Shown here: positions 6,151 through 43,282 of the stretch, in pieces
Layout of the letters: each line of letters starts with the position of its first letter
How positions within the stretch are numbered: position 1 is the first letter of the stretch
From: a virus
DNA: 64,000 bases
IMG/VR virus record: IMGVR_UViG_3300017605_001488
Span: 1-64,000 of that record
Strand: one strand, 5' to 3'
Made by a program: the position numbers and the translations under genes
The notes under the pieces: generated by a model
Seen by the model: the letters and a program-made list of their open reading frames with translations, nothing else
What the model was told of the DNA's origin: nothing
Database searches by the model: none

Positions 6151-6191
6151 ATCATACGCATGATTGCAGTGATTGCAAGTATTGCAATCAT
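6151..6191 (-). promoter_or_regulatory. Conserved phage promoter/operator motif, copy 1
   Basis: Minus strand TTGCAATACTTGCAATCACTGCAATCATGCGTATGAT (TTGCAA-N16-TATGAT); five copies in the window. Confidence 0.8.
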
Positions 6192-7753
6192 CCCACGACG
6201 CGCATGCCGACCCCGCCGCTCTGACGACGCTGGTTATCGAACACGCGGCACCCTTCACGCGCGAACCACGACGCCATCAACCGGTCGCCGGTGTGGTCCT
6301 TCGGGTTGTAGGTCAGCATCTCCCGAATCCACGCATCGATTTCCTTGTGCACGCGCAGGCCGCCCTTGACGAGCGAGCCGCCCTCGTTCGGGATGATCCA
6401 CTTCCCGGATGCAATCTCGGCGGCGACGCCCTGCACGCCCCATTCGGGGTGAGCCTTGTTTCGACCGGTGGTGAACGGTCGACACGTCGCCATCGTCAGC
6501 TTCTCGGCGAATTGCAGGATGTACTGCTGCGCGGCGTTGTTCTCGACGATGAAGATGCCACCGAACCGGTCGTACACGTTCTCGATGGCGTCGACGATCT
6601 CCGGACCGGCCATCTTGGCGGTCTCGATGTTCAACACCTGACGGAGCCCATCCGGCCACAACAGCACCGTGAAGATGCACGTGAGGTCGGCGGCCTCGGT
6701 CTTTCGTGACGCGAGGTCGACGCCGTGGAAGATGGCGAACCCTTCGTGCAACCGGGACAGCGCCTCGATCGCGTTCCCGAGCTCGTCGCGGTCGGTGATA
6801 CCGGACTCGAGCTCACGGATTAGGTCGTAGTCCCGTCCGAGCTCGATGCCGCGTTCGATCCATTCCTTCTTGAATCGCGCATCCTCCTCGTCGCGCGACA
6901 TGCACAGAAGCTGACGCGCGAACTCGAGCGGACCGAGCTCGATGCGCTTCTCCTCGATGCGGTCCTTGGGCCATTGCCCCGGCCACAGCAGATCGCCCGA
7001 GACCTCATCAACGATGGGGAACCGGAAGCTCTTGTATCGCTTGTTCGCGGCGAGCCGATGCAGCGCGTCCTCGGGGTGCCACGCGTTGCCCGGTGCCCAC
7101 ACGCGGGCGTTCGCCGTCAATCGACCGACCAGCGTGGACTGGATCCACTGCCATAGGTCGCGCCGCCCCGAATCGCGATCGACGTTTTCGTAGTCGAGGA
7201 TGTCGTCGAGGATGAGCAGGTCGATACGTGCGCCGAGGATGTTGCCGTGCACGCCGCACGCCTGCACGGATGGGTCCTTCGCGAGGATGGTGCGCTCGAC
7301 GGTGATGGCGTTCGCCGTCCACGGCAACGATTGGTCGCGCGCCGGCTTGAGGTCGGGAAAGATGGCGTGCAGCTCCGCCGACTTCTCGATGTACTGCGCG
7401 ATGAGCCGAACGATCTTCTTCGCCTGCTCGTTGGTGTTCGACACCACCGCCACGCGGAGGTTCGGGTTTTTCCCGAGCTCGTACAACACCCGCCCGACGC
7501 TGATCTGCGTCGTCTTCCCCGACTCGATCGATGCCCACAACACGACGCGGTCGTGGTCGTTGAGGATGTCGTGCCACTGATTGTGGAATGGCGCCTGCTG
7601 GACCGGCCGCCCGGCCTCGTCGCGCAGCACCATCTGATTGAAGAAGCTCGGGTCGTTGCGCGCGACCGCGAGGTTGATGTGGTGCGCCCGGCTATACGCG
7701 GTTTGCGCGTTGACCTTGCAAGCGACGGCGGGATCGGCGAGTGCGACGGACAT
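6188..7753 (-). CDS. terL: Terminase large subunit
   Basis: Walker A (IESGKTT), Walker B (LLILDDILD), RNase H-fold nuclease motifs GVDLAS, IVENN and HTGDRLMA; 521 aa. Confidence 0.92.
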   Translation of the reverse strand: MSVALADPAVACKVNAQTAYSRAHHINLAVARNDPSFFNQMVLRDEAGRPVQQAPFHNQWHDILNDHDRVVLWASIESGKTTQISVGRVLYELGKNPNLRVAVVSNTNEQAKKIVRLIAQYIEKSAELHAIFPDLKPARDQSLPWTANAITVERTILAKDPSVQACGVHGNILGARIDLLILDDILDYENVDRDSGRRDLWQWIQSTLVGRLTANARVWAPGNAWHPEDALHRLAANKRYKSFRFPIVDEVSGDLLWPGQWPKDRIEEKRIELGPLEFARQLLCMSRDEEDARFKKEWIERGIELGRDYDLIRELESGITDRDELGNAIEALSRLHEGFAIFHGVDLASRKTEAADLTCIFTVLLWPDGLRQVLNIETAKMAGPEIVDAIENVYDRFGGIFIVENNAAQQYILQFAEKLTMATCRPFTTGRNKAHPEWGVQGVAAEIASGKWIIPNEGGSLVKGGLRVHKEIDAWIREMLTYNPKDHTGDRLMASWFAREGCRVFDNQRRQSGGVGMRVVG

Positions 7754-7756
7754 GGC

Positions 7757-7800
7757 GTGGTGCGTGCGGCGGCCGGCGTGACCCGGTCCGGACTACTCTA
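7757..7800 (-). promoter_or_regulatory. terL leader: TG-n-TAGAGT -10-like element plus GTCACGCCGG/GCACGCACCAC box
   Basis: Both blocks (7773-7782, 7757-7767) recur upstream of the ParB gene (21870-21879, 21857-21867). Confidence 0.6.
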
Positions 7801-14011: not shown

Positions 14012-14581
14012 TTACGTCCCATCGTCCCACCCTTGCGCGCGCAACACCGAGGCGATGTCGGGCGGCAACCACCCCGCCGGCTTCACGGGCTTGGCCCACC
14101 CCTCCGTCGGCGAAGGACCTTTCGCCATGTTCGCACGATACACCGCCGCGTACACCGGGCCGGCGTCGACGCCGAACGTGATGAAGCACCCCTGGTTCAC
14201 GAACCCGATGTCGGCCATCGCGTCGATCGCCGCGGGCATGTCTACGTCGACGGGCGTGCGCTGGCACATGTCGACCACATCGCGCTCGACGGTCTTGAGC
14301 ACTTCGAGCTGTCCGTCGGCCCACCCGAACAACGCCGCAACGAGCTCGAATGCTTCCTCGATGGTGAGCTTCGCACGCAACCGCACCCATGCATCGGTCG
14401 GCACGCGCGGCGTCGCGCCGATGGGTTGCTCGAACCGGTCGTGGAACGCTTGCACCATTCCGTCGAGCTCCGATTGCCCGCGACGGGCGGCGCGTAGCTC
14501 CACGAGCTGCTTCGTGCACAACGATTGCAACGCGGTCACTTGGGCGCGCAGCCGCGCCACCTCATCGATGATTGCGTCCAT
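14012..14581 (-). CDS. MazG-like / PRA-PH-type nucleoside triphosphate pyrophosphohydrolase
   Basis: VxAFHxxF, EEAFEL, DAMAD, VYRANMAKG, KPVKPAGW-xPP. Confidence 0.85.
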   Translation of the reverse strand: MDAIIDEVARLRAQVTALQSLCTKQLVELRAARRGQSELDGMVQAFHDRFEQPIGATPRVPTDAWVRLRAKLTIEEAFELVAALFGWADGQLEVLKTVERDVVDMCQRTPVDVDMPAAIDAMADIGFVNQGCFITFGVDAGPVYAAVYRANMAKGPSPTEGWAKPVKPAGWLPPDIASVLRAQGWDDGT

Positions 14582-15006: not shown

Positions 15007-15893
15007 TGACACGCTCGACATCCGGCACACACCGCCGCGAGCTCGGTGCCCTTGCCATCGGGAGCCGACGGGTCGTACGCGTGCAGGCCGTCACCGCAAC
15101 AATTCCCGACGGGCTGCACGAGGACGATTCCGGGCGCGTCGTCGACGGGCGGCGTCGGTTGCATGAACTGCCCAAGGACCTTCTGCCCATCGAGCAACGC
15201 CTCCAACCGCTTTCTGAATCCGGCCTTCTGCTGTGTGAGCTGTCGCGTCGCATGCAGGTGGCATCCGCGCACGCGCTTCCGCAACGCGACGACCATGTCG
15301 AGCAAGCAATCCTTGTCGGCGGTCTGGAACAAGTACGCGCGCTCGCGTGCGTCCATCACCGTCGGCACGCCATCGGCGTCGACCGGCACCTCGAACGAGA
15401 TGGGCTTGGACGGGTCGGATTCGTCCAACGCCGCCGCGACCTCCTCGCGCATCTTCTCGACCCACGTCTTGCTTGGCATCGGCAGCACCGTTGCGCAGAT
15501 CGTTTCGCGCGTGGCGTGGTCGACCTTGAGCACGAGCAACACCGATTCGCCGTTGACCTCGATGATGGCCTGCCGTTGTCCGTGGATGGTGAGCTCCTTG
15601 AGCACGACCGCACTTTCGGCGGCGGCCTCGAGTGCGGCACGCGCGGCGTCGACATCCATCGCGCGTTCGTATCGTTGGATGTACCGCTCGATGGCGTGCT
15701 GATGAAAAACGATTCTCACGGGGTGCCTCCTCAATCGCGGCGGTCGGCGGCCCACGCCCATCCGATGCGCCGACGTGAATGCTACGCCCCCACATCGGGG
15801 GCAAGACGGAGCCTTGCGCGCGAACGCCCACCTTTCCGCGGCGTGTTTGCACCCCGAACACGTGAGCCACAACACCCGCACGTACCGCGTCAC
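15003..15893 (-). CDS. Hypothetical protein (HAIERY motif; possible internal start at 15719)
   Basis: N-terminal CxxC...CxxC; strong GAGGAGG before GTG 15719. Confidence 0.55.
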   Translation of the reverse strand: MTRYVRVLWLTCSGCKHAAERWAFARKAPSCPRCGGVAFTSAHRMGVGRRPPRLRRHPVRIVFHQHAIERYIQRYERAMDVDAARAALEAAAESAVVLKELTIHGQRQAIIEVNGESVLLVLKVDHATRETICATVLPMPSKTWVEKMREEVAAALDESDPSKPISFEVPVDADGVPTVMDARERAYLFQTADKDCLLDMVVALRKRVRGCHLHATRQLTQQKAGFRKRLEALLDGQKVLGQFMQPTPPVDDAPGIVLVQPVGNCCGDGLHAYDPSAPDGKGTELAAVCAGCRACQ

Positions 15894-16474
15894 GGCACGC
15901 CGATGGGGCGGCGCTTCTCGACGAACAGCATCGGCTTGAGCGCTGCCGACAAGTACAGCGGATGCGCCGGCACCGCGAGCTTCACCTGGAACCCGCGGCG
16001 CATGTTGGGCGACGTGCGCCCGTTGAGGGAGACCGCATGCAGCGCCGTGTACGGCTCGAGCAGCGACACCACGTACCCATCACGACCAGCGAGCGGGCCG
16101 TTGCTGCCCCACGCGCACACGACGAGGTCGGACGAGTTCGCTGCCGCCACGATCCACCCGTCGTTCGACGGCCCCTTCGGGTCGTCGTGCAATCGCAGCA
16201 CCGCGGGGTTCGTCGCACGCAACGCAAACAGGTTGACCACGACGAGCTCGGCGTAGCCCCAATCCCGGGTATACCCGATGCACCGGCGCACCGTTGCGTC
16301 GTCGATGTTCGCGTCGGCGGTCGATGGGTTCAGCATCACCCAACACACGCGCCCTTGCCCCGAACGCCAATCACCCCGCGTGAGGAAGTACCGGTACACG
16401 CCGTCGGGCGTGATGTATGCGCCGCGTGGAAACGACGCCTCGATGCGCGCGATGTCGGTCAACACACCGTTCAC
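15890..16474 (-). CDS. DUF1643 family protein
   Basis: YRYxLxR, VMLNPSTAD, DDATVRRC, VNLFALRATNP, VCAWG, HPLY. Confidence 0.9.
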   Translation of the reverse strand: MNGVLTDIARIEASFPRGAYITPDGVYRYFLTRGDWRSGQGRVCWVMLNPSTADANIDDATVRRCIGYTRDWGYAELVVVNLFALRATNPAVLRLHDDPKGPSNDGWIVAAANSSDLVVCAWGSNGPLAGRDGYVVSLLEPYTALHAVSLNGRTSPNMRRGFQVKLAVPAHPLYLSAALKPMLFVEKRRPIGVP

Positions 16475-16668
16475 GTCCCCTTTGAGACCGTCGGCGCGAT
16501 GCCGGTTCCCCCACACTTGGGGCACACGACGAGCCGCGCATCATTCGACGCACCCGCACGGCGTCGACCGGACCGGCGTTCGGGGAGGAACAACACCTCC
16601 CCGTCGCCGGAACACGTCGAGCACTTGCGGCGCTTGTGCTGAAAGTCGACGTAGATGACGCGACCCAT
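16471..16668 (-). CDS. Small CxxCxGxG zinc-finger protein
   Basis: CSTCSGDG and CPKCGGTG. Confidence 0.6.
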   Translation of the reverse strand: MGRVIYVDFQHKRRKCSTCSGDGEVLFLPERRSGRRRAGASNDARLVVCPKCGGTGIAPTVSKGT

Positions 16669-16686: not shown

Positions 16687-17445
16687 TCACCAGGGCTTGC
16701 GCGATGCCGTGTGCTCGTTGAAGTGCGCCGTGACGACGCGCCCCATCCCCTCGAACTCCTCGGTGAACGCGTAGATACCCTCGCTCGTCAGGATGGGGAT
16801 GGACACCTTCGACTCGATGTCGCGCCGAGCACACGGCGGCGGCAAGTAGATCAGCACCGATGCATGCGGCGGCGAGCTCCCCTCCTCGAACCCGTCGCCC
16901 ACATCGCGGTAGTATGCGATGCGCGACGCGGGAACACAGAACGGGAAATCGATGGGCGTGCGCCCGGTGCATTCGTTCTGCGCGACTTGCAGGATCTCCA
17001 GGCTGAACCCGACGAAGAACGCCGACGGCACCCGCAACGACTCCCACTCCGCGAGCAACTTCTGCCACCACCGTTTCTGCGACGACATCACGTCCTCGTG
17101 CACATGCCGGCACGGGACCCAATCGCCGCCCGGAGATTGCACGCACGACCACTCGCCCTTCGACGGCAGCGTGCGGTGCTCCTTTTTCACCGGACCGACG
17201 GTGATGCCTTGGTTGTCGCACTTGCCGCCGGGCGGGTTGAGGAACGTCCGCCCCGACCACGGCGTGAGGTACCCGTTGGTGGCCGCGGTGTGGAACGCCT
17301 CCGCGCGAACGATGTGCGCGTTGGCGCGTTCCGTCGTTGCCGGGTCGAGGTCGAAACCCCCGAGCACCGACCGCGCACGGTTGACCACGTCGGGCGGCGT
17401 GAAGTGCTCGGCGGACTCGCTGGAGTGGCGCACGTTGTCGGTCAT
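16687..17445 (-). CDS. Phage Dam-like DNA N6-adenine methyltransferase (NPPG variant)
   Basis: EHFTPP, FDLDPA, WSGRTFLNPPG, RIAY, PPHAS. Confidence 0.75.
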   Translation of the reverse strand: MTDNVRHSSESAEHFTPPDVVNRARSVLGGFDLDPATTERANAHIVRAEAFHTAATNGYLTPWSGRTFLNPPGGKCDNQGITVGPVKKEHRTLPSKGEWSCVQSPGGDWVPCRHVHEDVMSSQKRWWQKLLAEWESLRVPSAFFVGFSLEILQVAQNECTGRTPIDFPFCVPASRIAYYRDVGDGFEEGSSPPHASVLIYLPPPCARRDIESKVSIPILTSEGIYAFTEEFEGMGRVVTAHFNEHTASRKPW

Positions 17446-18560: not shown

Positions 18561-19190
18561 CTATCCCAGCGCCTCCATGTGGGCACCCTTGCGCGGGTTG
18601 GGTTCGTACTCGAGCTCGATGTTGCGGAACGTTTCGTCCAGCCACCGCGCCATCCGCGACGCGGTCGCCTGCAAGCCCGACCGCTGGGATAGACCGTTCC
18701 AATGTGCGCCGTCGATCTTCCACGTGTGTGCGAGCGTGTACGGCATCGCAGCAAGCTCGTGGACGTGCATGCCGGACAGCTCCGGCAGCATCAACCGGAA
18801 CATCGCCGTGAGCGCTTCGCGCCACTCGACACGGCGGCGGTCGCGCGCGAACAACGGCCACAGCTTCCGCTGCCGCGCGGTGCGAATGGTCGGCAGCATG
18901 TGCGTGCCGTGTTCCAACGCGACCCACAACGCGAACACCCACGCCTCGGCATACCACTCCCATCCGCCCTGCTCCACGTGCAGGCTATTCGACCGACGGG
19001 CGAACACGGCCTTGTACACGTACGGCTTCCCGAACGCGCGCATGTCCCGCGCCGCGTTCCCCGACACCAACAACACGTCGTCGCGCCCGGTGCGTGCATG
19101 CGCGTAGGTGCCGGCCGCCATCTCCACATCCTCCCGCATCGCGCGTGCGATGCCCTTGTGCTCGAGTTGCCAGGCGCGACTTCGCGTCAC
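18561..19190 (-). CDS. Hypothetical protein (PxW family)
   Basis: GTGA overlap; AEAW...EWREALTAMFRL. Confidence 0.6.
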   Translation of the reverse strand: MTRSRAWQLEHKGIARAMREDVEMAAGTYAHARTGRDDVLLVSGNAARDMRAFGKPYVYKAVFARRSNSLHVEQGGWEWYAEAWVFALWVALEHGTHMLPTIRTARQRKLWPLFARDRRRVEWREALTAMFRLMLPELSGMHVHELAAMPYTLAHTWKIDGAHWNGLSQRSGLQATASRMARWLDETFRNIELEYEPNPRKGAHMEALG

Positions 19191-19843
19191 GGCTTGCCGG
19201 CTTCCTCGCCTTCGCCGGCGGCAACCTTGCGCGTGTACGATTCGAACTCCGCGACGGTGACGATCTCCGACGGATGAGCGTGCTCGCTGGTCACCGCGAC
19301 ATCGGTGCATTCGTCGCACAGCGGGATGCCCCCGAACACGTACGTGGACGGCACGTCGACGGCGTGGTCGCGCTCGCACCACTTGATGCGCTCCCGCTCG
19401 CGAGCGGCATCGTACGCGTCGCGGTCCACGTTGAAGATGCGCTGCATGCCGACCCACGGCACGAACCGCAGGCCGATGAGGTTCTGCACATCGAACCCGT
19501 ACTGCGGTCGCCCGTCGCGGTTGGTCAACATCGCCCACGGCGGGCGGTGCGCGCGCTTGCTGTTCAACGTGCACCCCGTCACCGTGCATAGGCCCATGAT
19601 GCCGCCAAACCGGCGCGTGGCCACGAACCGATCGAACGGTGGGAGGATGATCTCCTCGTCGATGTTGTCCTGCATCCACGCCTCGGCCCAATCGTATTCC
19701 GATCGGGTGAGCCCGACCGCCCGATGCAAGTACAACTCCCCGCGATGGGTCGTCGACCACACGCGGTTCTCGATGTCCTTGCCGAGCTCCCACATCGCGT
19801 AGAGCCACGGTTCGCGCAGCGACAGCACCTTGATGATGCCCAT
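19187..19843 (-). CDS. ASCH domain protein
   Basis: LSLREPW, GKDIENRVW-x3-HRGELYLH. Confidence 0.85.
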   Translation of the reverse strand: MGIIKVLSLREPWLYAMWELGKDIENRVWSTTHRGELYLHRAVGLTRSEYDWAEAWMQDNIDEEIILPPFDRFVATRRFGGIMGLCTVTGCTLNSKRAHRPPWAMLTNRDGRPQYGFDVQNLIGLRFVPWVGMQRIFNVDRDAYDAARERERIKWCERDHAVDVPSTYVFGGIPLCDECTDVAVTSEHAHPSEIVTVAEFESYTRKVAAGEGEEAGKP

Positions 19844-19854
19844 GCCGACCGTAC

Positions 19855-20229
19855 TTACGCGGTGCCGCGGTCAATCACGTCGACGCGATAGCCCGGGATC
19901 GCTACGCCGGGCGGGATGCGCAAGAGCTCTCCGAGCACCTTGATGGCGCGTGCCGGGTCGCACACGTCGCCGCACGTGAACACGTCCACGAACATCACGC
20001 CCGCTTCGGGGTACGTGTGAATGGACGCGTGCGACTCCGACAGCTCGACGAGGACGGTGAGCCCTTGCGGCTCGAACTCGCGCACGTGCGACGCGAGCAC
20101 CGTGGCACCGGCATGCCGACACGCCGCGACGAGCGACAGCTCGAGCGTCACCCGACTGTTCAACGTCTCGAACGGGACGCCGTGGAACTCGGCGAGGGCG
20201 TGTTTGCCGCGCGGGGGATGGTCGCTCAT
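19855..20229 (-). CDS. speD: S-adenosylmethionine decarboxylase proenzyme (class 1B family)
   Basis: GKHALAE, FEPQG, LSESHASIHTYPE (pyruvoyl cleavage site), DVFTCG. Confidence 0.9.
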   Translation of the reverse strand: MSDHPPRGKHALAEFHGVPFETLNSRVTLELSLVAACRHAGATVLASHVREFEPQGLTVLVELSESHASIHTYPEAGVMFVDVFTCGDVCDPARAIKVLGELLRIPPGVAIPGYRVDVIDRGTA

Positions 20230-21152
20230 GCCGGCCGCCGAAACACGATTGCGTACTCGTGCACCTTGGGTGCGATGCGGTGGCGGTTCTTGTCCGCGGC
20301 GAAGATGCGCGGCAACCCCGCGATGAGCCCGTCGACGATCCACGTGTCGTGCAGCTTCCAACCGGCACGCACCATCAGGGCGATGGTGTCGGCGTGGTAC
20401 GCGTAGAAGTCCCCGCCCCGTCGAAAGTCGTTCACGTTCGACACGAAGTACGCGCCCGGCTTGAACTTGGGCAACCACTCGCGCGCGACCGTTTCCATCC
20501 CCGCGAGGAAGTCCTGGTACGTGCCCAGCTTGCCCAACTGCTCGGGCTCGTCACCGTAGTACTCGATGTCGTAGTACGGCGGCGACGTGAACCCGAAGTC
20601 TCCACGCCCGTCGGCGATCCACGACGGGTCCCGCGAGTCCCCGTGCACGATGTCGATGCGGGTCTTGCCGTCGTCGATCTTGGCCTTCACCGCCGCGATG
20701 TACCGGAAGAACTCCGTCGACAAGTCCATGCCGACGTAGTGCAACCCGCGCAGCTTCGCGACCTGCATTTGCACGCCCTGCCCCATGAACGGATCGAGGT
20801 ACGTGTCCCCGGGCTTGGCGTAGTACTTGATGAAGAAGTCGACGAGCTCGGCGGGCATGATGGACGCGTTGACGCGTTGGCCGCCCTTCTGCTTCGTCAT
20901 CACACCGCCCACGATGCCCATGCGCTTCCGTTCTTTGGCGGTGGCCTTGCCCTCGGTGGTCTTGGTGTTCGCGACGAGCGTGTCACCGTCGGCGGAGATG
21001 GACCGGCCGCGCTCCTCCTGCTGGTACATGAACATCGACTTGGACAACGCGCCGCGCGACAACTTCAGCACCGACATCGGCATGAACCCGAACTTGGCGG
21101 TGAGGTCGTCGCGGTTCGTGGCCGACGCGCGCACGCGGTCCGCGAGCGTCAC
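20226..21152 (-). CDS. DNA amino-methyltransferase-like protein (N4-C/N6-A)
   Basis: Motif I YLDPFMGQG, GMDLS, GDS, motif IV FTSPPYY, C-terminal HEY. Confidence 0.85.
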   Translation of the reverse strand: MTLADRVRASATNRDDLTAKFGFMPMSVLKLSRGALSKSMFMYQQEERGRSISADGDTLVANTKTTEGKATAKERKRMGIVGGVMTKQKGGQRVNASIMPAELVDFFIKYYAKPGDTYLDPFMGQGVQMQVAKLRGLHYVGMDLSTEFFRYIAAVKAKIDDGKTRIDIVHGDSRDPSWIADGRGDFGFTSPPYYDIEYYGDEPEQLGKLGTYQDFLAGMETVAREWLPKFKPGAYFVSNVNDFRRGGDFYAYHADTIALMVRAGWKLHDTWIVDGLIAGLPRIFAADKNRHRIAPKVHEYAIVFRRPA

Positions 21153-21856
21153 GGCGTCACCACCTTCGCGGCGGTTTCCTGACGCAACCACGCACGCAAC
21201 ACGTCGTCGAGCATCGGTGTCGTGCCCGCTTGTTGCGTCGCGCGGTACCGGGTCACGAACTCGTCGTACACGGCCTTGGTGACGCGACCGGCGTAGTCGC
21301 CGAACCGGAACGCGACGAACCCGTCGTCGGTGTCGTCCGCCGCACCGAAGTCCGCCGGACCATCCCCCGGGGTGGCGTCGCTGGCCGCGGCGAGAATGGC
21401 GTCGACCTCCTCCTGCGGGATGCCCGTGCCCGTGACCACGTCGACGTTGTGGTCGAGCAGCTTCGCCACCTCGACCGCGAACGCGGCGTCGTCCCATTCG
21501 GCGATCTCGCCGAGCTTGTTGTCCGCGAGTGCGAGCGCGTGCGCCTCGTCTTCGGTGATGTCGAGGAACCGCACCGGCACCATCCCGGGCGACGGCTGCC
21601 CGGGGAACACCCCGTTGAGCAGCAACACCGCCTTGCGGCGGGTGTGGCCCTTGATGATCTCGCGGTTCGCGAGCCGCGCCACGATCGGCGCACCGAACCC
21701 AAACCGCCCGATGGACGCGGCGATCTCGGGCACGGCCTTGTCGTTCACGCGCGGGTTGTCGGCCCACGGGACGAGCGAGTCGAGCGCCACCCATTCGGCG
21801 GCGGGCGGAACAACAACGGGCGCGGGTGCGCCTTCCTTCGAACGTTTCGGTGGCAT
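21149..21856 (-). CDS. ParB/Srx N-terminal domain protein
   Basis: WADNPR, SIGRFGFGAPIV, IIKGHTR, LADNKLGE. Confidence 0.9.
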   Translation of the reverse strand: MPPKRSKEGAPAPVVVPPAAEWVALDSLVPWADNPRVNDKAVPEIAASIGRFGFGAPIVARLANREIIKGHTRRKAVLLLNGVFPGQPSPGMVPVRFLDITEDEAHALALADNKLGEIAEWDDAAFAVEVAKLLDHNVDVVTGTGIPQEEVDAILAAASDATPGDGPADFGAADDTDDGFVAFRFGDYAGRVTKAVYDEFVTRYRATQQAGTTPMLDDVLRAWLRQETAAKVVTP

Positions 21857-21899
21857 GTGGTGCGTGCTCCCGGCGTGACGGGGTTGAGCCCCCACCGTA
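21857..21899 (-). promoter_or_regulatory. ParB-operon leader: TACGGT -10-like element plus CCGTCACGCCGG/GCACGCACCAC box
   Basis: Same two blocks as the terL leader. Confidence 0.6.
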
Positions 21900-40594: not shown

Positions 40595-43282
40595 TTACGC
40601 GGCTTCCTTGTATTTTTCGAGCGAGCCCCACGCACGCCCGACCTCAATGTCGACCTTGAGCTCCACGTCACCGGACGGGTACGACTCCATGATGCGCTTG
40701 ACCTGATACGCGACCTCGGGCACGGCGTCCTCGCGCACCTCGAGCAGCAGCGAGTCGTGCACCGGCAAGCACAACATCGCCGGCACGGCGTCCTCGCGTA
40801 GCCAATCCACCACGTCGACGATCGACCGCACGCAGTAGTCCGATGCCGTCCCCTGGATCGGGGTGTTCACGGCACCGTTCTCGGCGGTGATGCGCTGCCC
40901 GTCGTCCTCGTCCGCGATGCGATGCAACGACCGGCGGCGCGCACGTTCGCCGTCCCACATCGTCCACGACTCGCCGGTGCGTCGCGATTCGGACAACCGC
41001 TCCTTGCACCACGCGGCCAGCCGCACGAACTTCCCTAGGATGGCGTCCATCACGCGTTGAGCCTCGGCAACGGTGCACCCGAGGTTCGCGGCCAACGTGC
41101 GCGCCGTCATGCCGTACAGCACGCCAAAGTTCACGGCCTTCGCCTGCGCACGGTGCTCCTTACCGACCTGCTCCGCGGTGATGTGCCACAGCATCGGCGC
41201 GACCATCTGCGCGGTGCGCTTGTGAAAGTCGACGCCCGACCTGAAAATCTCCTTCATCACCGGGTCGTTCGACAACATCGCCGCGATGCGCAACTCCAGC
41301 TGCGAATAGTCCGCCGACAGCAGCAAGTACCCCGGACGCGCACAGAAGCAGTCGCGCGCCATCTTGCCCTCGGGTCCCTTGTACGTGGGCGATTCCGGGT
41401 CATCGACGCGGGGGATGTTCTGTAGGTTAGGGTCCTTGCACGACGTGCGACCGGACCGCGCGCCGTCGAGCAGAATCGACGGGTGGATGCGCCCGTCTGG
41501 GCGCACGTGCGGCAACATCCCGATCGCGTACGTCGACCGCATCTTGGTGATTCGCCGGTACTCGAGCAACGCCGGGATGAGCTCGTGCTCGCCCTCCAGC
41601 TCCTCGAGCGTGTCCTTGTCCGTGCTCTCGTTGTCGTTGTCGGTGATTCGGATGACACGCAACCCGAGGTCCTTGAACAGGATCTTGCGCAGCTGCGGTG
41701 CCGAGTTCCAGTTCACGTTCGGGAAGTACGAGTCGAGGCGGCGCTTCGCGTCGAGCTCCTTCCCCTCCAAGTGCTTGTCGAACATGATGATGGCACCGCG
41801 GTCGGTCGGGATTCCCCACCGTTCGACCTGCGCGATGGCCGTGCTCGCACCGGCCACGATGCGATCCCACACCCGCTGCAACGGCGGCACCGCCGCGAGC
41901 GCCGGCTCGAACACCTCGCACAACGCCGTCGTCGCGACCGCGTCGCGCGCGTTGTATCGATACACCACGTCGCGGTTGGTGTGGTCCAGCACCGCGTACA
42001 CCCACGAGTCGGAGTCGTGCGCCCAATTCTTGTTCTTCGACGTGCCGTGCGACTTCTCACGCACGACGGGCTCGAGCTCCGCGTCGATACCCAACGTCGA
42101 CAACGGCGGCGGCGGCACCGGTGGCACGGGCGGCTTGCGCGTCTTGCTGTTGGCCAGCTTCGCCGGGTACTCGGCCAACGCCTTCTCGTACCGCTTCTCG
42201 GCGGCCATGATGCCGCGCACCTTCTTCACGGCCTCGACGGAGTACCGATCCTTTTCTTCCTTCATGCCGCCCATCCCGACGAGCTCGCACATGCGCGCGA
42301 GGTCGGCGGCAGCCTCGGGGTCGAGCAGCTTGCGCCACAAGCGCGTGTCGCCATCGAGACCACGCACGCGGGCATCCCACTCGAAGTCCGCCGAGTTCTC
42401 GTCGTACTTCACGTTCTGCCCACGCTTGCGCGCGCCAACGTCGCGCAGGTACTCCAGCATGATGTCGACGGCTTGCGGGTCGGCAAACGCCTCGCCACCC
42501 CACAGGAATGCATCGCGCTCGCCCTGTGGACAGAACGAGATGCACACGATGCGGAACGACGGATCGTACATGAGCCCGGCGGTTTCCACGTCGAACGACG
42601 ACCACGGGAACGAACGCAGGTACTTGACCGCGAGGCGCGCGTCGTCGGCGTTCTCGACGACGTGCACGACCCCGTCCCATGGTGGCGTCGACACGTTCGC
42701 TTTGAGCGCCCACGCCATGTCATCCTCGAACCACTGGCGCACGAATCGGTTTCGTAGCGCCGCCGACGGATGGATGACCAGGAACACCGGCACCGGTTGG
42801 CGCGTGCGCGCGAGGAATGAATACCCGCGCCGGGTCGAGAACGGCGCCACCGCCCGACCCAACACGGAATACGCCGCCCATCCACCCACGCACACGATGC
42901 GTGTGGGCTCCGCCTCGATGGCGGTCTTGGTCAGGTACCCGCGGCACGCCTCGATGTGCGGATCGTCGGGACCATCACGCCCGGGAAAGCACCGCACCGC
43001 GTTGTCGTACGCAACGGGACCCTTCCAATGCTTCGCGATCGTCTCGCGTAGCAACTTCCCCGACTTGCCGATGAACGGTCGACCGATGGCGTCTTCGTTT
43101 CGGCCGGGCGCTTCCCCCACGACGAGCAAACCACCCGCCTCACCCTCGGCGTTGATGCACACCGTCTTTGGCCGCCCAATCTCCGGGAGGTTGCACCGAC
43201 GGCATGCGTGGTCGACGTTGAGGGGTTCGGCGAGTTCCAACGCCACGGCGGGTGGCGACTCGTACAGGGAAAGGCGGCGCAC
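40595..43282 (-). CDS. polA: Family A DNA polymerase with N-terminal uracil-DNA glycosylase (family 4-like) domain
   Basis: UDG: CRRC, VGEAPG, PFIG, NAVRC, HPSA. Exonuclease: FDVET, NVKYD, YNARD. Polymerase: SGRTSCKDPNLQN, DYSQLELR, KAVNFGVLYG, VHDSL. Confidence 0.95.
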   Translation of the reverse strand: MRRLSLYESPPAVALELAEPLNVDHACRRCNLPEIGRPKTVCINAEGEAGGLLVVGEAPGRNEDAIGRPFIGKSGKLLRETIAKHWKGPVAYDNAVRCFPGRDGPDDPHIEACRGYLTKTAIEAEPTRIVCVGGWAAYSVLGRAVAPFSTRRGYSFLARTRQPVPVFLVIHPSAALRNRFVRQWFEDDMAWALKANVSTPPWDGVVHVVENADDARLAVKYLRSFPWSSFDVETAGLMYDPSFRIVCISFCPQGERDAFLWGGEAFADPQAVDIMLEYLRDVGARKRGQNVKYDENSADFEWDARVRGLDGDTRLWRKLLDPEAAADLARMCELVGMGGMKEEKDRYSVEAVKKVRGIMAAEKRYEKALAEYPAKLANSKTRKPPVPPVPPPPLSTLGIDAELEPVVREKSHGTSKNKNWAHDSDSWVYAVLDHTNRDVVYRYNARDAVATTALCEVFEPALAAVPPLQRVWDRIVAGASTAIAQVERWGIPTDRGAIIMFDKHLEGKELDAKRRLDSYFPNVNWNSAPQLRKILFKDLGLRVIRITDNDNESTDKDTLEELEGEHELIPALLEYRRITKMRSTYAIGMLPHVRPDGRIHPSILLDGARSGRTSCKDPNLQNIPRVDDPESPTYKGPEGKMARDCFCARPGYLLLSADYSQLELRIAAMLSNDPVMKEIFRSGVDFHKRTAQMVAPMLWHITAEQVGKEHRAQAKAVNFGVLYGMTARTLAANLGCTVAEAQRVMDAILGKFVRLAAWCKERLSESRRTGESWTMWDGERARRRSLHRIADEDDGQRITAENGAVNTPIQGTASDYCVRSIVDVVDWLREDAVPAMLCLPVHDSLLLEVREDAVPEVAYQVKRIMESYPSGDVELKVDIEVGRAWGSLEKYKEAA

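Follow-up and report, generated by a model that had tools for sequence, protein, structure and literature searches.

A phage SAM decarboxylase gene coupled to a ParB-associated DNA methyltransferase-like gene: a putative dcSAM-dependent DNA modification module

Why should a phage carry an S-adenosylmethionine decarboxylase gene (speD) in direct overlap with the gene of a DNA methyltransferase-like enzyme (MTase), and does the one enzyme serve the other? The question is raised by an operon within the window, i.e. the whole stretch of 64,000 nucleotides that was analysed, which belongs to a complete, high-GC phage genome of 96,875 bp with direct terminal repeats. A megablast comparison of the region with cultured phages gave no match. 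When reading the minus strand, ParB, MTase and SpeD were found to form one overlapping operon from the SpeD stop to the ParB start (19855-21856), joined by a GTGA overlap between ParB and MTase and an ATGA overlap between MTase and SpeD, so that both the junctions and the coordinates given in the preliminary description were borne out (Table 1). The motifs named there, LSESH...H and FTCG in SpeD and DPFMGQG and TSPPY in the MTase, are likewise all in place. The operon is situated 14 kb away from terL, and a leader motif, GTCACGCCGG-N2-GCACGCACCAC, has only two copies in the genome, one before ParB and one before terL. A second MTase-like gene, presumably dependent on SAM, is located 2.4 kb away.

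Table 1. Position of the operon, its motifs and related features in the window.
Feature	Position	Strand	Basis
ParB/Srx-like N-terminal-domain protein, 235 aa (ATG at 21856, TGA stop at 21151-21149)	21149-21856	-	phrog_620 6.7e-32; phrog_498 N-terminal part 3.8e-29
N6/N4 amino-DNA-methyltransferase-fold enzyme, 308 aa (GTG start at 21152, stop 20228-20226)	20226-21152	-	PF01555 63.2 bits
MTase motif I loop D120-Q130, DPFMGQGVQMQ	20763-20795	-	alignments of relatives; N4CMT alignment
Q128 codon in MTase motif I loop	20769-20771	-	Arg/Lys position of SpeD-less relatives
MTase motif IV S190-P-P-Y193, catalytic amino-MTase motif, intact	20574-20585	-	invariant in family alignment
Class 1b S-adenosylmethionine decarboxylase proenzyme SpeD, 124 aa (ATG start at 20229, stop 19857-19855)	19855-20229	-	PF02675, TIGR03330, 1TLU/1VR7 alignment
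SpeD self-cleavage site E65-S66	20032-20037	-	alignment to T. maritima AdoMetDC
SpeD C86	19972-19974	-	alignment to T. maritima AdoMetDC
ASCH-like N-terminal core gene, 11 nt past SpeD stop, same direction	19187-19843	-	phrog_3193 1.9e-17
Leader motif, abuts ParB start codon	21857-21879	-	motif search of genome
Second leader motif copy, 3 nt upstream of terL start codon	7757-7782	-	motif search of genome
terL	6191-7753	-	phrog_38 1.1e-54

The SpeD of the window is best explained as a true pyruvoyl AdoMetDC that would make decarboxylated SAM (dcSAM) from SAM. It scores 98.1 bits against PF02675 (cut-off 25) and 101.7 bits against the equivalog TIGR03330 (cut-off 75.65), and a gapless alignment to the T. 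maritima AdoMetDC (1TLU/1VR7) places E14, E65-S66, H71 and C86 as the equivalents of Glu11, Glu62-Ser63, His68 and Cys83. All of these catalytic residues are kept and are invariant in the alignment of the SpeD family. The nearest longer homologues are actinobacterial fusions of SpeD with spermidine synthase (SpeD-SpeE), and one further homologue (P0002) is 79% identical to the window SpeD, while a scan of genome contigs with the window SpeD revealed no relative. The absence of a spermidine synthase elsewhere in the genome had been set in advance as a test by the preliminary description; across the complete 96,875-bp genome no match to PF01564 was found. An experimental precedent comes from phage P2559S, the SpeD of which (gp67) restores spermidine in E. 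coli without speD (PMC9992855).

The MTase scores 63.2 bits against PF01555 (cut-off 26.7) and matched this family only, giving no match to the spermidine synthase family PF01564. Its motif order is permuted compared to PF01555, with profile positions 160-219 (motif I) lying N-terminal to positions 5-110 (motif IV), i.e. not the order of the beta class, in which IV precedes I. Along its entire length the enzyme shows homology to the MTase halves of the fusion proteins of locus L002 and of Stutzerimonas phage ZRG1, and an AlphaFold model with a core pLDDT of 85-97 was recognised by Foldseek as a class I MTase fold, the model being ligand-free and confirming the fold only. Motif IV reads TSPPY (residues 189-193) and motif I FMGQG (residues 122-126). 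ParB is 34% identical to the fusion protein of ZRG1 in the N-terminal domain of the latter and contains the GHxR motif (GHTR); it gave no match to Pfam ParB (PF02195) at E<=0.01 and only 18.4 bits against TIGR00180. It matches the N-terminal part of phrog_498, a family of ParB-MTase fusions, and appears to represent a free-standing version of the ParB domain which other phages have fused to related MTases.

Conservation of the MTase-SpeD linkage was a further test fixed beforehand, and across the sampled loci the gene order is kept. An MTase, with or without fused ParB, followed by SpeD on the same strand was found in Croceibacter phage P2559S, in Stutzerimonas phage ZRG1 and on a 46-kb low-GC viral contig; SpeD follows the MTase at 4/80 viral loci of the fused family, among 12 of the 14 close metagenomic relatives of the window MTase and at 11 further viral loci. 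At most linked loci SpeD overlaps or abuts the MTase, and at a few the two are separated by another copy of the MTase or by as much as about 1 kb. The adjacency recurs in many unrelated phages, far beyond chance. A search for a fusion of SpeD with the MTase (Rosetta-stone) found none.

When comparing family members that harbour or lack a neighbouring SpeD, one residue of the motif I loop was found to follow its presence. At loci with a non-basic residue at the Q128 position SpeD adjoins the MTase in 31/32 cases of the sampled family (20/20 and 11/12 in the two samples), while with Arg or Lys at this position SpeD is found beside the MTase in 0/115 (0/85 and 0/30). In a scan of alignment columns the Q128 position was the only one that differed in 5/5 comparisons of linked and unlinked enzymes, M99 coming next with 4/5. 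The clade of the window has a split ParB and the loop GQGVQ, its SpeD-less close relatives have GQG[IV]R and the SpeD-less sister clade has GHNSR, so that Arg and Gln toggle at position 128 within the clade itself. One of the GQG[IV]R members is a complete 39-kb genome and SpeD was found nowhere in it. A tree built with the loop columns removed placed the clade as sister to the GHNSR clade (SH-aLRT 100), far from the fused clade of P2559S and ZRG1. It contains four well-supported independent contrasts, all concordant (sign test p=0.125), with poor resolution inside the clade of the window. The clade and the Arg/Gln toggle within it are new results of this study.

The exception among the non-basic loci (L209) has a Q-type loop; on its 4.3-kb fragment the next genes are terS and terL, and the 2.7 kb of downstream sequence contain no SpeD. 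One phage of the K-type has a weak SpeD-like ORF elsewhere in its genome. Gln125 is also present in the SpeD-less R-type relatives. SpeD types differ behind near-identical MTase loops within the clade of the window, and the SpeD tree, which is short and poorly resolved, supports at least two separate positions for MTase-linked SpeDs. Taken over the sampled family, the co-variation of a putative carboxylate-adjacent residue with the presence of SpeD, seen in several independent lineages, lends strong comparative support to the idea that the MTase uses dcSAM.

The placing of this residue comes from the solved rotifer N4CMT. In the alignment, M99 corresponds to Phe257, Q125 to Ser283 and V127 to Thr285, Q128 being the next residue, and Phe257, Ser283 and Thr285 of N4CMT are reported to form hydrogen bonds to the cofactor carboxylate (PMC10406627); the co-varying positions are accordingly predicted to sit in the shell around the carboxylate. 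The residues taken as holders of the SAM carboxylate, the Ser/Thr of GSGTT in solved enzymes and Arg/Lys at loop +4 in the family clade, are not present in the window MTase, which has Q125, V127 and Q128 compared to Ser283, Thr285 and Thr286 of N4CMT. As the preliminary description had cautioned, the acidic GGGDG-type residue is absent as well, with Gln125-Gly126 in its place, and the signature that emerges is a loss of Arg/Lys and not a gain of Asp. An acidic loop residue was considered as a mark of dcSAM use and rejected: the fused clade of P2559S and ZRG1 has Asp at the position of Gln125 (GDT), but Glu or Asp is found there in the SpeD-less enzymes with GEQTK and GDTVK too, and the window MTase has a Gln.

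Four precedents can be cited. In spermidine synthase the motif-I Asp excludes the carboxylate of SAM (PMC1282579), and a few changes in the tail pocket turn SPDS into PMT (PMC3725402). The MTase homologue CmoX is provided with carboxy-SAM by CmoA (PMC12783734), and a ParB-like protein activates a phage DNA dioxygenase on double-stranded DNA (PMC13229309).

The reading preferred here, with a probability of roughly 0.6, is that the methylase-fold enzyme is tuned to dcSAM and receives it from SpeD. In relatives the MTase loses the basic residue beside the predicted carboxylate site wherever SpeD is present, so that it probably works with dcSAM. ParB, MTase and SpeD would then form a phage DNA-modification module: SpeD would convert host SAM to dcSAM, and the MTase, having kept its catalytic SPPY and lost the Arg/Lys beside the carboxylate site, would bind dcSAM instead of SAM. 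Helped by its ParB-like partner to act on double-stranded DNA, it might modify exocyclic amino groups of A or C in the phage DNA, with a timing possibly co-regulated with packaging. We infer dcSAM as the cofactor, DNA as the target and the role of ParB from sequence comparison. The preliminary description had supposed that the enzyme may use dcSAM to aminoalkylate DNA; the first half of this gains strong comparative support from the co-variation of loop and SpeD. There is a slight lean to 3-aminopropyl as the transferred group, since a change of cofactor is accounted for most easily if the group that is transferred has changed too, with methyl from dcSAM nearly as likely. In its most specific form the proposal is a tentative one and less likely than not: transfer of the 3-aminopropyl group of dcSAM to N6 of adenine or N4 of cytosine, giving a cationic, polyamine-like base made post-replication by enzymes that might have evolved repeatedly from ParB-associated methylases through the loss of a single basic residue, and might be widespread in phages of many phyla. 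Such a DNA modification, and such a use of the cofactor, would be without described precedent.

The next explanation, which is unlikely but survives best among the competitors, is in fact a sub-case of dcSAM use with another purpose and product: SpeD drains host SAM against type I/III restriction and BREX, and the MTase takes the methyl group from dcSAM, giving ordinary m6A or m4C. The changes tracking SpeD do not reach beyond the carboxylate shell, SPPY is unchanged, the toggling of Arg and Gln between close relatives suggests an easy switch in tail recognition with no new chemistry, and no downstream tailoring enzymes are conserved, all of which agrees with such a function. As a sink, however, SpeD appears poorly suited, class 1b AdoMetDC being a slow enzyme and SAM resynthesis being left unblocked (no MetK inhibitor or homologue was found in the phage), and the second MTase-like gene nearby presumably needs SAM itself. 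Methyl transfer alone moreover gives no reason for a change of cofactor, and SPDS/PMT shows that changes in the tail pocket can switch the transferred group.

Less probable still is that two unrelated functions lie side by side, a SAM-dependent orphan methylase protecting the DNA and, inserted at a permissive site ahead of the packaging genes, SpeD as an auxiliary metabolic gene for polyamines, giving more spermidine via the host SpeE or aiding DNA condensation. SpeD is a common stand-alone phage gene (0/80 of the best viral SpeD loci have an MTase of this kind nearby), phage SpeDs do complement spermidine synthesis, and the slot between ParB-MTase and terS is a typical moron site. Yet this would not account for a loop residue that is non-basic with SpeD (31/32) and basic in 115/115 unlinked enzymes across separate clades. 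The different SpeD types in the same slot would also be left unexplained, as would the fact that MTase and SpeD have stayed coupled in this phage although their operon is far from terL. The suggestions made earlier of polyamine supply for packaging, or of a pure SAM sink, are less supported, as they leave the co-variation unexplained.

A role of the SpeD homologue as an arginine or ornithine decarboxylase, neofunctionalised to yield agmatine or putrescine and unrelated to the methylase next to it, is very improbable. Examples of such a change of function are on record for phages and Actinomycetota (PMC9992855, PMC10407285) and the phage has no SpeE, but the score lies above the AdoMetDC equivalog cut-off, the longer homologues nearest to it carry a fused spermidine synthase, P2559S has a genuine AdoMetDC as its partner SpeD, and Pelagiphage homologues of the ADC/ODC type were not hit at E<=1e-3. 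Equally hard to credit is a non-orthologous aminopropyltransferase standing in for spermidine synthase on a small amine, which would fit the missing SpeE, the class I fold and the binding of an amino nucleophile by motif IV, but not the full-length homology to DNA amino-MTases (the region after motif IV included), the constant pairing or fusion with a ParB DNA-binding domain and the position next to packaging genes in relatives.

The arrangement proposed here, a SpeD feeding dcSAM to a DNA-directed enzyme, resembles several known systems without coinciding with any of them. The closest are gp66-gp67 of P2559S and the ParB-domain protein with AdoMetDC of ZRG1, sequenced phages in which the pair was not studied as a unit; they have the same gene order, the MTase overlaps SpeD and the basic residue is lost (GDTVF). 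They differ in that ParB is fused to the MTase, the loop has an Asp, SpeD is short or otherwise different and the module lies right before terS/terL, while the window enzyme, with its split ParB and GQGVQ loop, belongs to a deeply separate clade. The ParB-fused or -associated N6/N4 DNA methyltransferases of phages and plasmids (phrog_498; PF02195+PF01555; PMC12704722) share family and architecture. Most members of this type have GGSVR, GEQTK or GHNSR as their loop and presumably methylate with SAM in the ordinary way, unlike the window enzyme with its lost Arg/Lys and its coupling to SpeD. Among solved structures the best matches are TTHA0409 (2ZIE/2ZIF/2ZIG) and the rotifer N4CMT (8S9N), which share the blocks SPPY..Y.D.P.QLG and PFP...DPFxG; in the window MTase the motif order is circularly permuted compared to these, and the Ser/Thr of GSGTT is replaced by Gln and Val.

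In its logic the module matches CmoA-CmoX(-CmoY) of Synechococcus phage S-B43 (PMC12783734), where a SAM-altering enzyme is joined to a tuned MTase-fold DNA enzyme, often with ParB-domain genes nearby. A predicted SAM-altering enzyme beside a putative MTase-fold DNA enzyme is found here too, as overlap and co-variation, with the fit of the pocket predicted from the alignment. That system pairs a SAM carboxylase with a C5-MTase homologue, uses carboxy-SAM and not dcSAM, and has a proven chemistry; there is no homology, SpeD belonging to PF02675 and the transferase to PF01555, and PF00145 (C5-MTase) gave no match in the phage genome. SpeD-SpeE, fusions included, and SPDS/PMT provide the other parallel, a decarboxylase feeding dcSAM to a class I transferase whose motif-I loop decides on acceptance of the carboxylate, while a handful of residues in the tail pocket change both the cofactor and the group transferred. 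The window transferase is, in contrast to SpeE, a homologue of DNA amino-MTases with SPPY, no GGGDG and no tetramerisation domain. Phage T3 has a SAM consumer as well, a SAM lyase that depletes SAM as a counter-defence against SAM-dependent restriction, but its fold and reaction are unrelated, it has no partner transferase, and no co-variation with the pocket of a methylase is known for it.

To our knowledge no described DNA-modifying enzyme uses dcSAM, and a search of the literature for aminopropylated DNA or for a link between SpeD and methylases found nothing, nor was a paper on this system found. If the preferred reading is true, the MTase-fold enzyme would be the first DNA-modifying enzyme known to use dcSAM, and the module would follow carboxy-SAM and CmoX as the second case in which phages adapt SAM for writing on DNA. 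Phage speD genes beside an MTase of this kind would have a role other than polyamine supply, and a one-residue rule (Arg/Lys or not) would predict the cofactor across the large family of methylases associated with ParB. An enzyme that naturally aminopropylates DNA, or depends on dcSAM to modify it, could also serve as a labelling tool, and the modified DNA would affect sequencing and restriction cutting.

Two minor observations concern the neighbourhood of the module. In one relative two tandem Q-type MTases are followed by a single SpeD. The ASCH-like gene downstream of SpeD was considered as a further member, but phmmer revealed no homologue at other loci and it was treated as incidental, its membership being uncertain; it has no Pfam match, and its local similarity to gp65 of phage P2559S, a protein with an ASCH domain, is weak.

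The full virus record is a complete genome of 96,875 bp with direct terminal repeats, and the window covers its first 64 kb. Its G+C content is ~66% and the minus strand holds nearly all genes. On this strand a ParB-like protein, a DNA methyltransferase-type protein (MTase) and an S-adenosylmethionine decarboxylase (SpeD) are encoded by three genes that, as the preliminary description had proposed, are joined by GTGA and ATGA overlaps, and all the motifs quoted there for MTase and SpeD are present in the translated genes. MTase matched its Pfam family with 63.2 bits, while SpeD matched its own with 98.1 bits and the NCBIfam AdoMetDC equivalog with 101.7 bits (cut-off 75.65), and for these two of the three genes the family assignment is firm as judged from sequence. 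ParB was matched at ~1e-32 by PHROG ParB families and by no model in a Pfam search. ParB and MTase match, respectively, the two halves of the ParB-MTase fusion family phrog_498, so that together they represent the split version of a fusion common in phages. The reported lack of a spermidine synthase in the 64 kb extends to the whole 96.9-kb genome, in which no SAM synthetase or C5-methylase was found either.

Features of the ParB-MTase-SpeD operon, its leader motif and other genes in the window
Feature	Position	Strand	Size or sequence	Match or remark
ParB	21856-21149	minus	235 aa	PHROG ParB families
MTase	21152-20226	minus	308 aa	PF01555; GTG start within GTGA overlap
SpeD	20229-19855	minus	124 aa	PF02675; ATG start within ATGA overlap
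Leader motif, copy 1	21857-21879	minus	23 nt; GTCACGCCGG, 2 bases, GCACGCACCAC	abuts ParB start codon
Leader motif, copy 2	7757-7782	minus	GTCACGCCGG, 2-5 bases (range for the motif), GCACGCACCAC	3 nt before terL start
ASCH-like gene	19187-19843	minus		phrog_3193 (N-terminal core); 11 nt downstream of SpeD
Second putative MTase-like gene	16687-17445	minus		phrog_111 at 7.5e-12; weak Dam PF05869 match
DUF1643 gene	15890-16525	minus		PF07799 at 1.3e-35
MazG-like gene	14012-14581	minus		nucleotide pyrophosphohydrolase
Family A DNA polymerase	40595-43282	minus	895 aa	N-terminal uracil-DNA-glycosylase-superfamily domain

Alignment of the window SpeD with AdoMetDC of T. maritima was gapless and showed that the Glu-Ser cleavage site, the His, the Cys and the N-terminal Glu are all kept. 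The closest stand-alone homologues are found in Pseudonocardiaceae (50–55% identity) and the closest longer ones are SpeD-spermidine synthase fusions of Nocardia and Pseudonocardia, the latter kinship arguing for a predicted function as a genuine SAM decarboxylase. An E. coli strain without speD makes spermidine again when it receives the SpeD that partners the MTase of Croceibacter phage P2559S (PMC9992855). In Bacillus phage vB_BcoS-136 the annotated SpeH (L004:3752-4825, 357 aa) has an AdoMet_dc domain at 86–192 only, and the ~165 aa C-terminal to it carry no domain assignment.

The linkage of MTase and SpeD, whose conservation was to be checked, proved to be conserved, though for a subset of phage SpeDs only. 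Among the best 80 viral SpeD loci, mostly cyanophage-like, none has such an MTase nearby. When 80 viral loci were retrieved with the MTase, the order ParB-MTase, SpeD, terS, terL appeared in four, at G+C contents of 29–62%. In P2559S gp66 (MTase) overlaps gp67 (SpeD), in Stutzerimonas phage ZRG1 the pair lies directly ahead of the terminase, and in a 46-kb low-GC viral contig SpeD is overlapped by a ParB-MTase fusion gene. Scanning metagenomes with the window MTase brought up 28 relatives, of which the closest 14 have in common the loop DPFMGQG and a separate, abutting ParB gene, and in 12 of these SpeD directly follows the MTase. A second viral scan added 11 linked loci.

When grouped by their motif I loop, the MTases split cleanly by the presence of SpeD at one position of this loop, Q128 in the window MTase, the fourth residue counted from the invariant Gly of FxG. 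It is Arg or Lys in all SpeD-less MTases (85 first-set and 30 second-set loci with enough downstream sequence; loops GGSVR, GEQTK, GHNSR, GSLAR, GDTVK and GQG[IV]R) and Gln, Phe, Met or Ser in the SpeD-linked ones (GQGVQ, GDTVF/M, GEPVS). Conversely, SpeD lies beside MTases with a non-basic loop in 20/20 loci of the first set and 11/12 of the second, and these counts, like the 85 and 30 above, include duplicates since some contigs are common to both collections. One exception is a Gln-type MTase fragment (L209) with no SpeD within 2.7 kb downstream, and a possible partial one is a phage with a Lys-type MTase (GESTKGI) in which a weak SpeD-like ORF of 29 bits (L166, in the record of L162, 21020-21259) is found ~14–20 kb away. 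In a column-by-column scan of the alignment the Q128 position alone differed in all five linked/unlinked comparisons, followed by the Met99 position with four of five.

For the MTase tree the loop columns were removed and the sequences thinned to <90% identity. The sister of the window's clade is the SpeD-less GHNSR clade (SH-aLRT 100), both being far from the fused-ParB group, within which the P2559S/ZRG1 clade and the GEPVS enzyme take different places. On well-supported branches the SpeD state must have changed four times or more, and the loop residue changes too in 4/4 independent contrasts, a number too small for a sign test to become significant (p=0.125). Branching within the window's clade is poorly supported, yet several members of the clade are Arg-type and lack SpeD, and in one of them SpeD is missing from the entire, complete 39-kb genome. 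At least two kinds of SpeD stand behind the one GQGVQ loop in this clade, a long canonical type (window, L172 and L206) and a short type (FPGGG...AESHAA.HTWPE...ATCG), and selection seems to act on the presence of an AdoMetDC and not on a single inherited cassette.

Some relatives have unusual arrangements. The locus L196:3779-6155, among the closest relatives of the window MTase (67% identity), has two paralogous MTases in tandem, each with GQGVQMQ, ahead of a single short-type SpeD. In L178:2535-6223 a SpeD-less Arg-type member of the window's clade (GQGIRMQ) is followed by QueD-like, second ParB-like and radical-SAM-like genes, which looks like a 7-deazaguanine-type DNA-modification island. 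Four Arg-type relatives (P0241, P0242, P0243 and P0244) are fusion proteins whose additional domain is of the ACC-deaminase-like PLP type (PF00291) or an Asp/Asn-hydroxylase-like dioxygenase (PF05118), a hint of other DNA hypermodification chemistries; one carries a LAGLIDADG intein directly ahead of SPPY.

Among solved structures the window MTase is closest to TTHA0409 and to N4CMT, the N4-cytosine methyltransferase of a rotifer. In the N4CMT-sinefungin structure the terminal carboxylate of the cofactor is hydrogen-bonded by Ser283, Thr285 and the Phe257 backbone amide, a network stabilised by Arg313 (PMC10406627). In a gapless alignment Phe257, Phe280, Ser283 and Thr285 correspond to Met99, Phe122, Gln125 and Val127, the last directly followed by Gln128. 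From this alignment and the reported contacts we infer that both co-varying columns lie in the carboxylate shell, where their residues may contact the cofactor carboxylate. An AlphaFold model has a class I fold, in which the motif I stretch forms a loop-to-helix turn, modelled with confidence, that follows strand 1. It is this loop by which spermidine synthase accepts decarboxylated SAM (dcSAM) and refuses SAM (PMC1282579).

The simplest account is that SpeD would supply dcSAM to an MTase-fold enzyme blind to, or intolerant of, the cofactor carboxylate, and on these sequence comparisons we give the use of dcSAM by the MTase a probability of about 0.6. Weak points are the few well-supported contrasts, L209, the SpeD-like ORF of the Lys-type phage, the second MTase-like gene of the window and a search for MTase-SpeD fusion proteins which found none. 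If dcSAM is used, transfer of its aminopropyl group is slightly ahead, as the SPDS/PMT pair shows that a few changes in the tail pocket are enough to switch the cofactor together with the group transferred (PMC3725402). Slightly behind is transfer of the methyl group from the dcSAM sulfonium, which would agree with changes confined to the tail pocket and an intact SPPY, but such a donor gains nothing by decarboxylation unless SAM is drained as well. Use of dcSAM would resemble CmoA-CmoX, in which a phage is proven to tailor SAM to the needs of an MTase homologue, a pocket residue reads the altered SAM group and ParB-domain genes are nearby (PMC12783734); there the chemistry is proven, while here it is proposed from sequence comparison. 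For a phage DNA dioxygenase, activation by a ParB-like protein on double-stranded DNA has been shown (PMC13229309), and by analogy a similar role is plausible for the ParB partner. A literature search found no paper tying SpeD to a DNA methylase and none on aminopropylated DNA.

A bipartite leader motif has only two copies in the 96.9-kb genome, ahead of terL and ahead of the operon, pointing to a late leader or a translational signal common to both. The module lies directly ahead of terS/terL in other phages and 14 kb from terL in the window, and the shared leader fits a modification timed with packaging. The other linked loci showed no homologue of the ASCH-like gene; in P2559S an ASCH-domain gene (gp65) is located just upstream of the MTase. 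The second MTase-like gene has NPPG in place of the usual NPPY. The DUF1643 and MazG-like genes, which lie some kilobases downstream of the operon, may add to the nucleotide or DNA metabolism functions encoded in this region.
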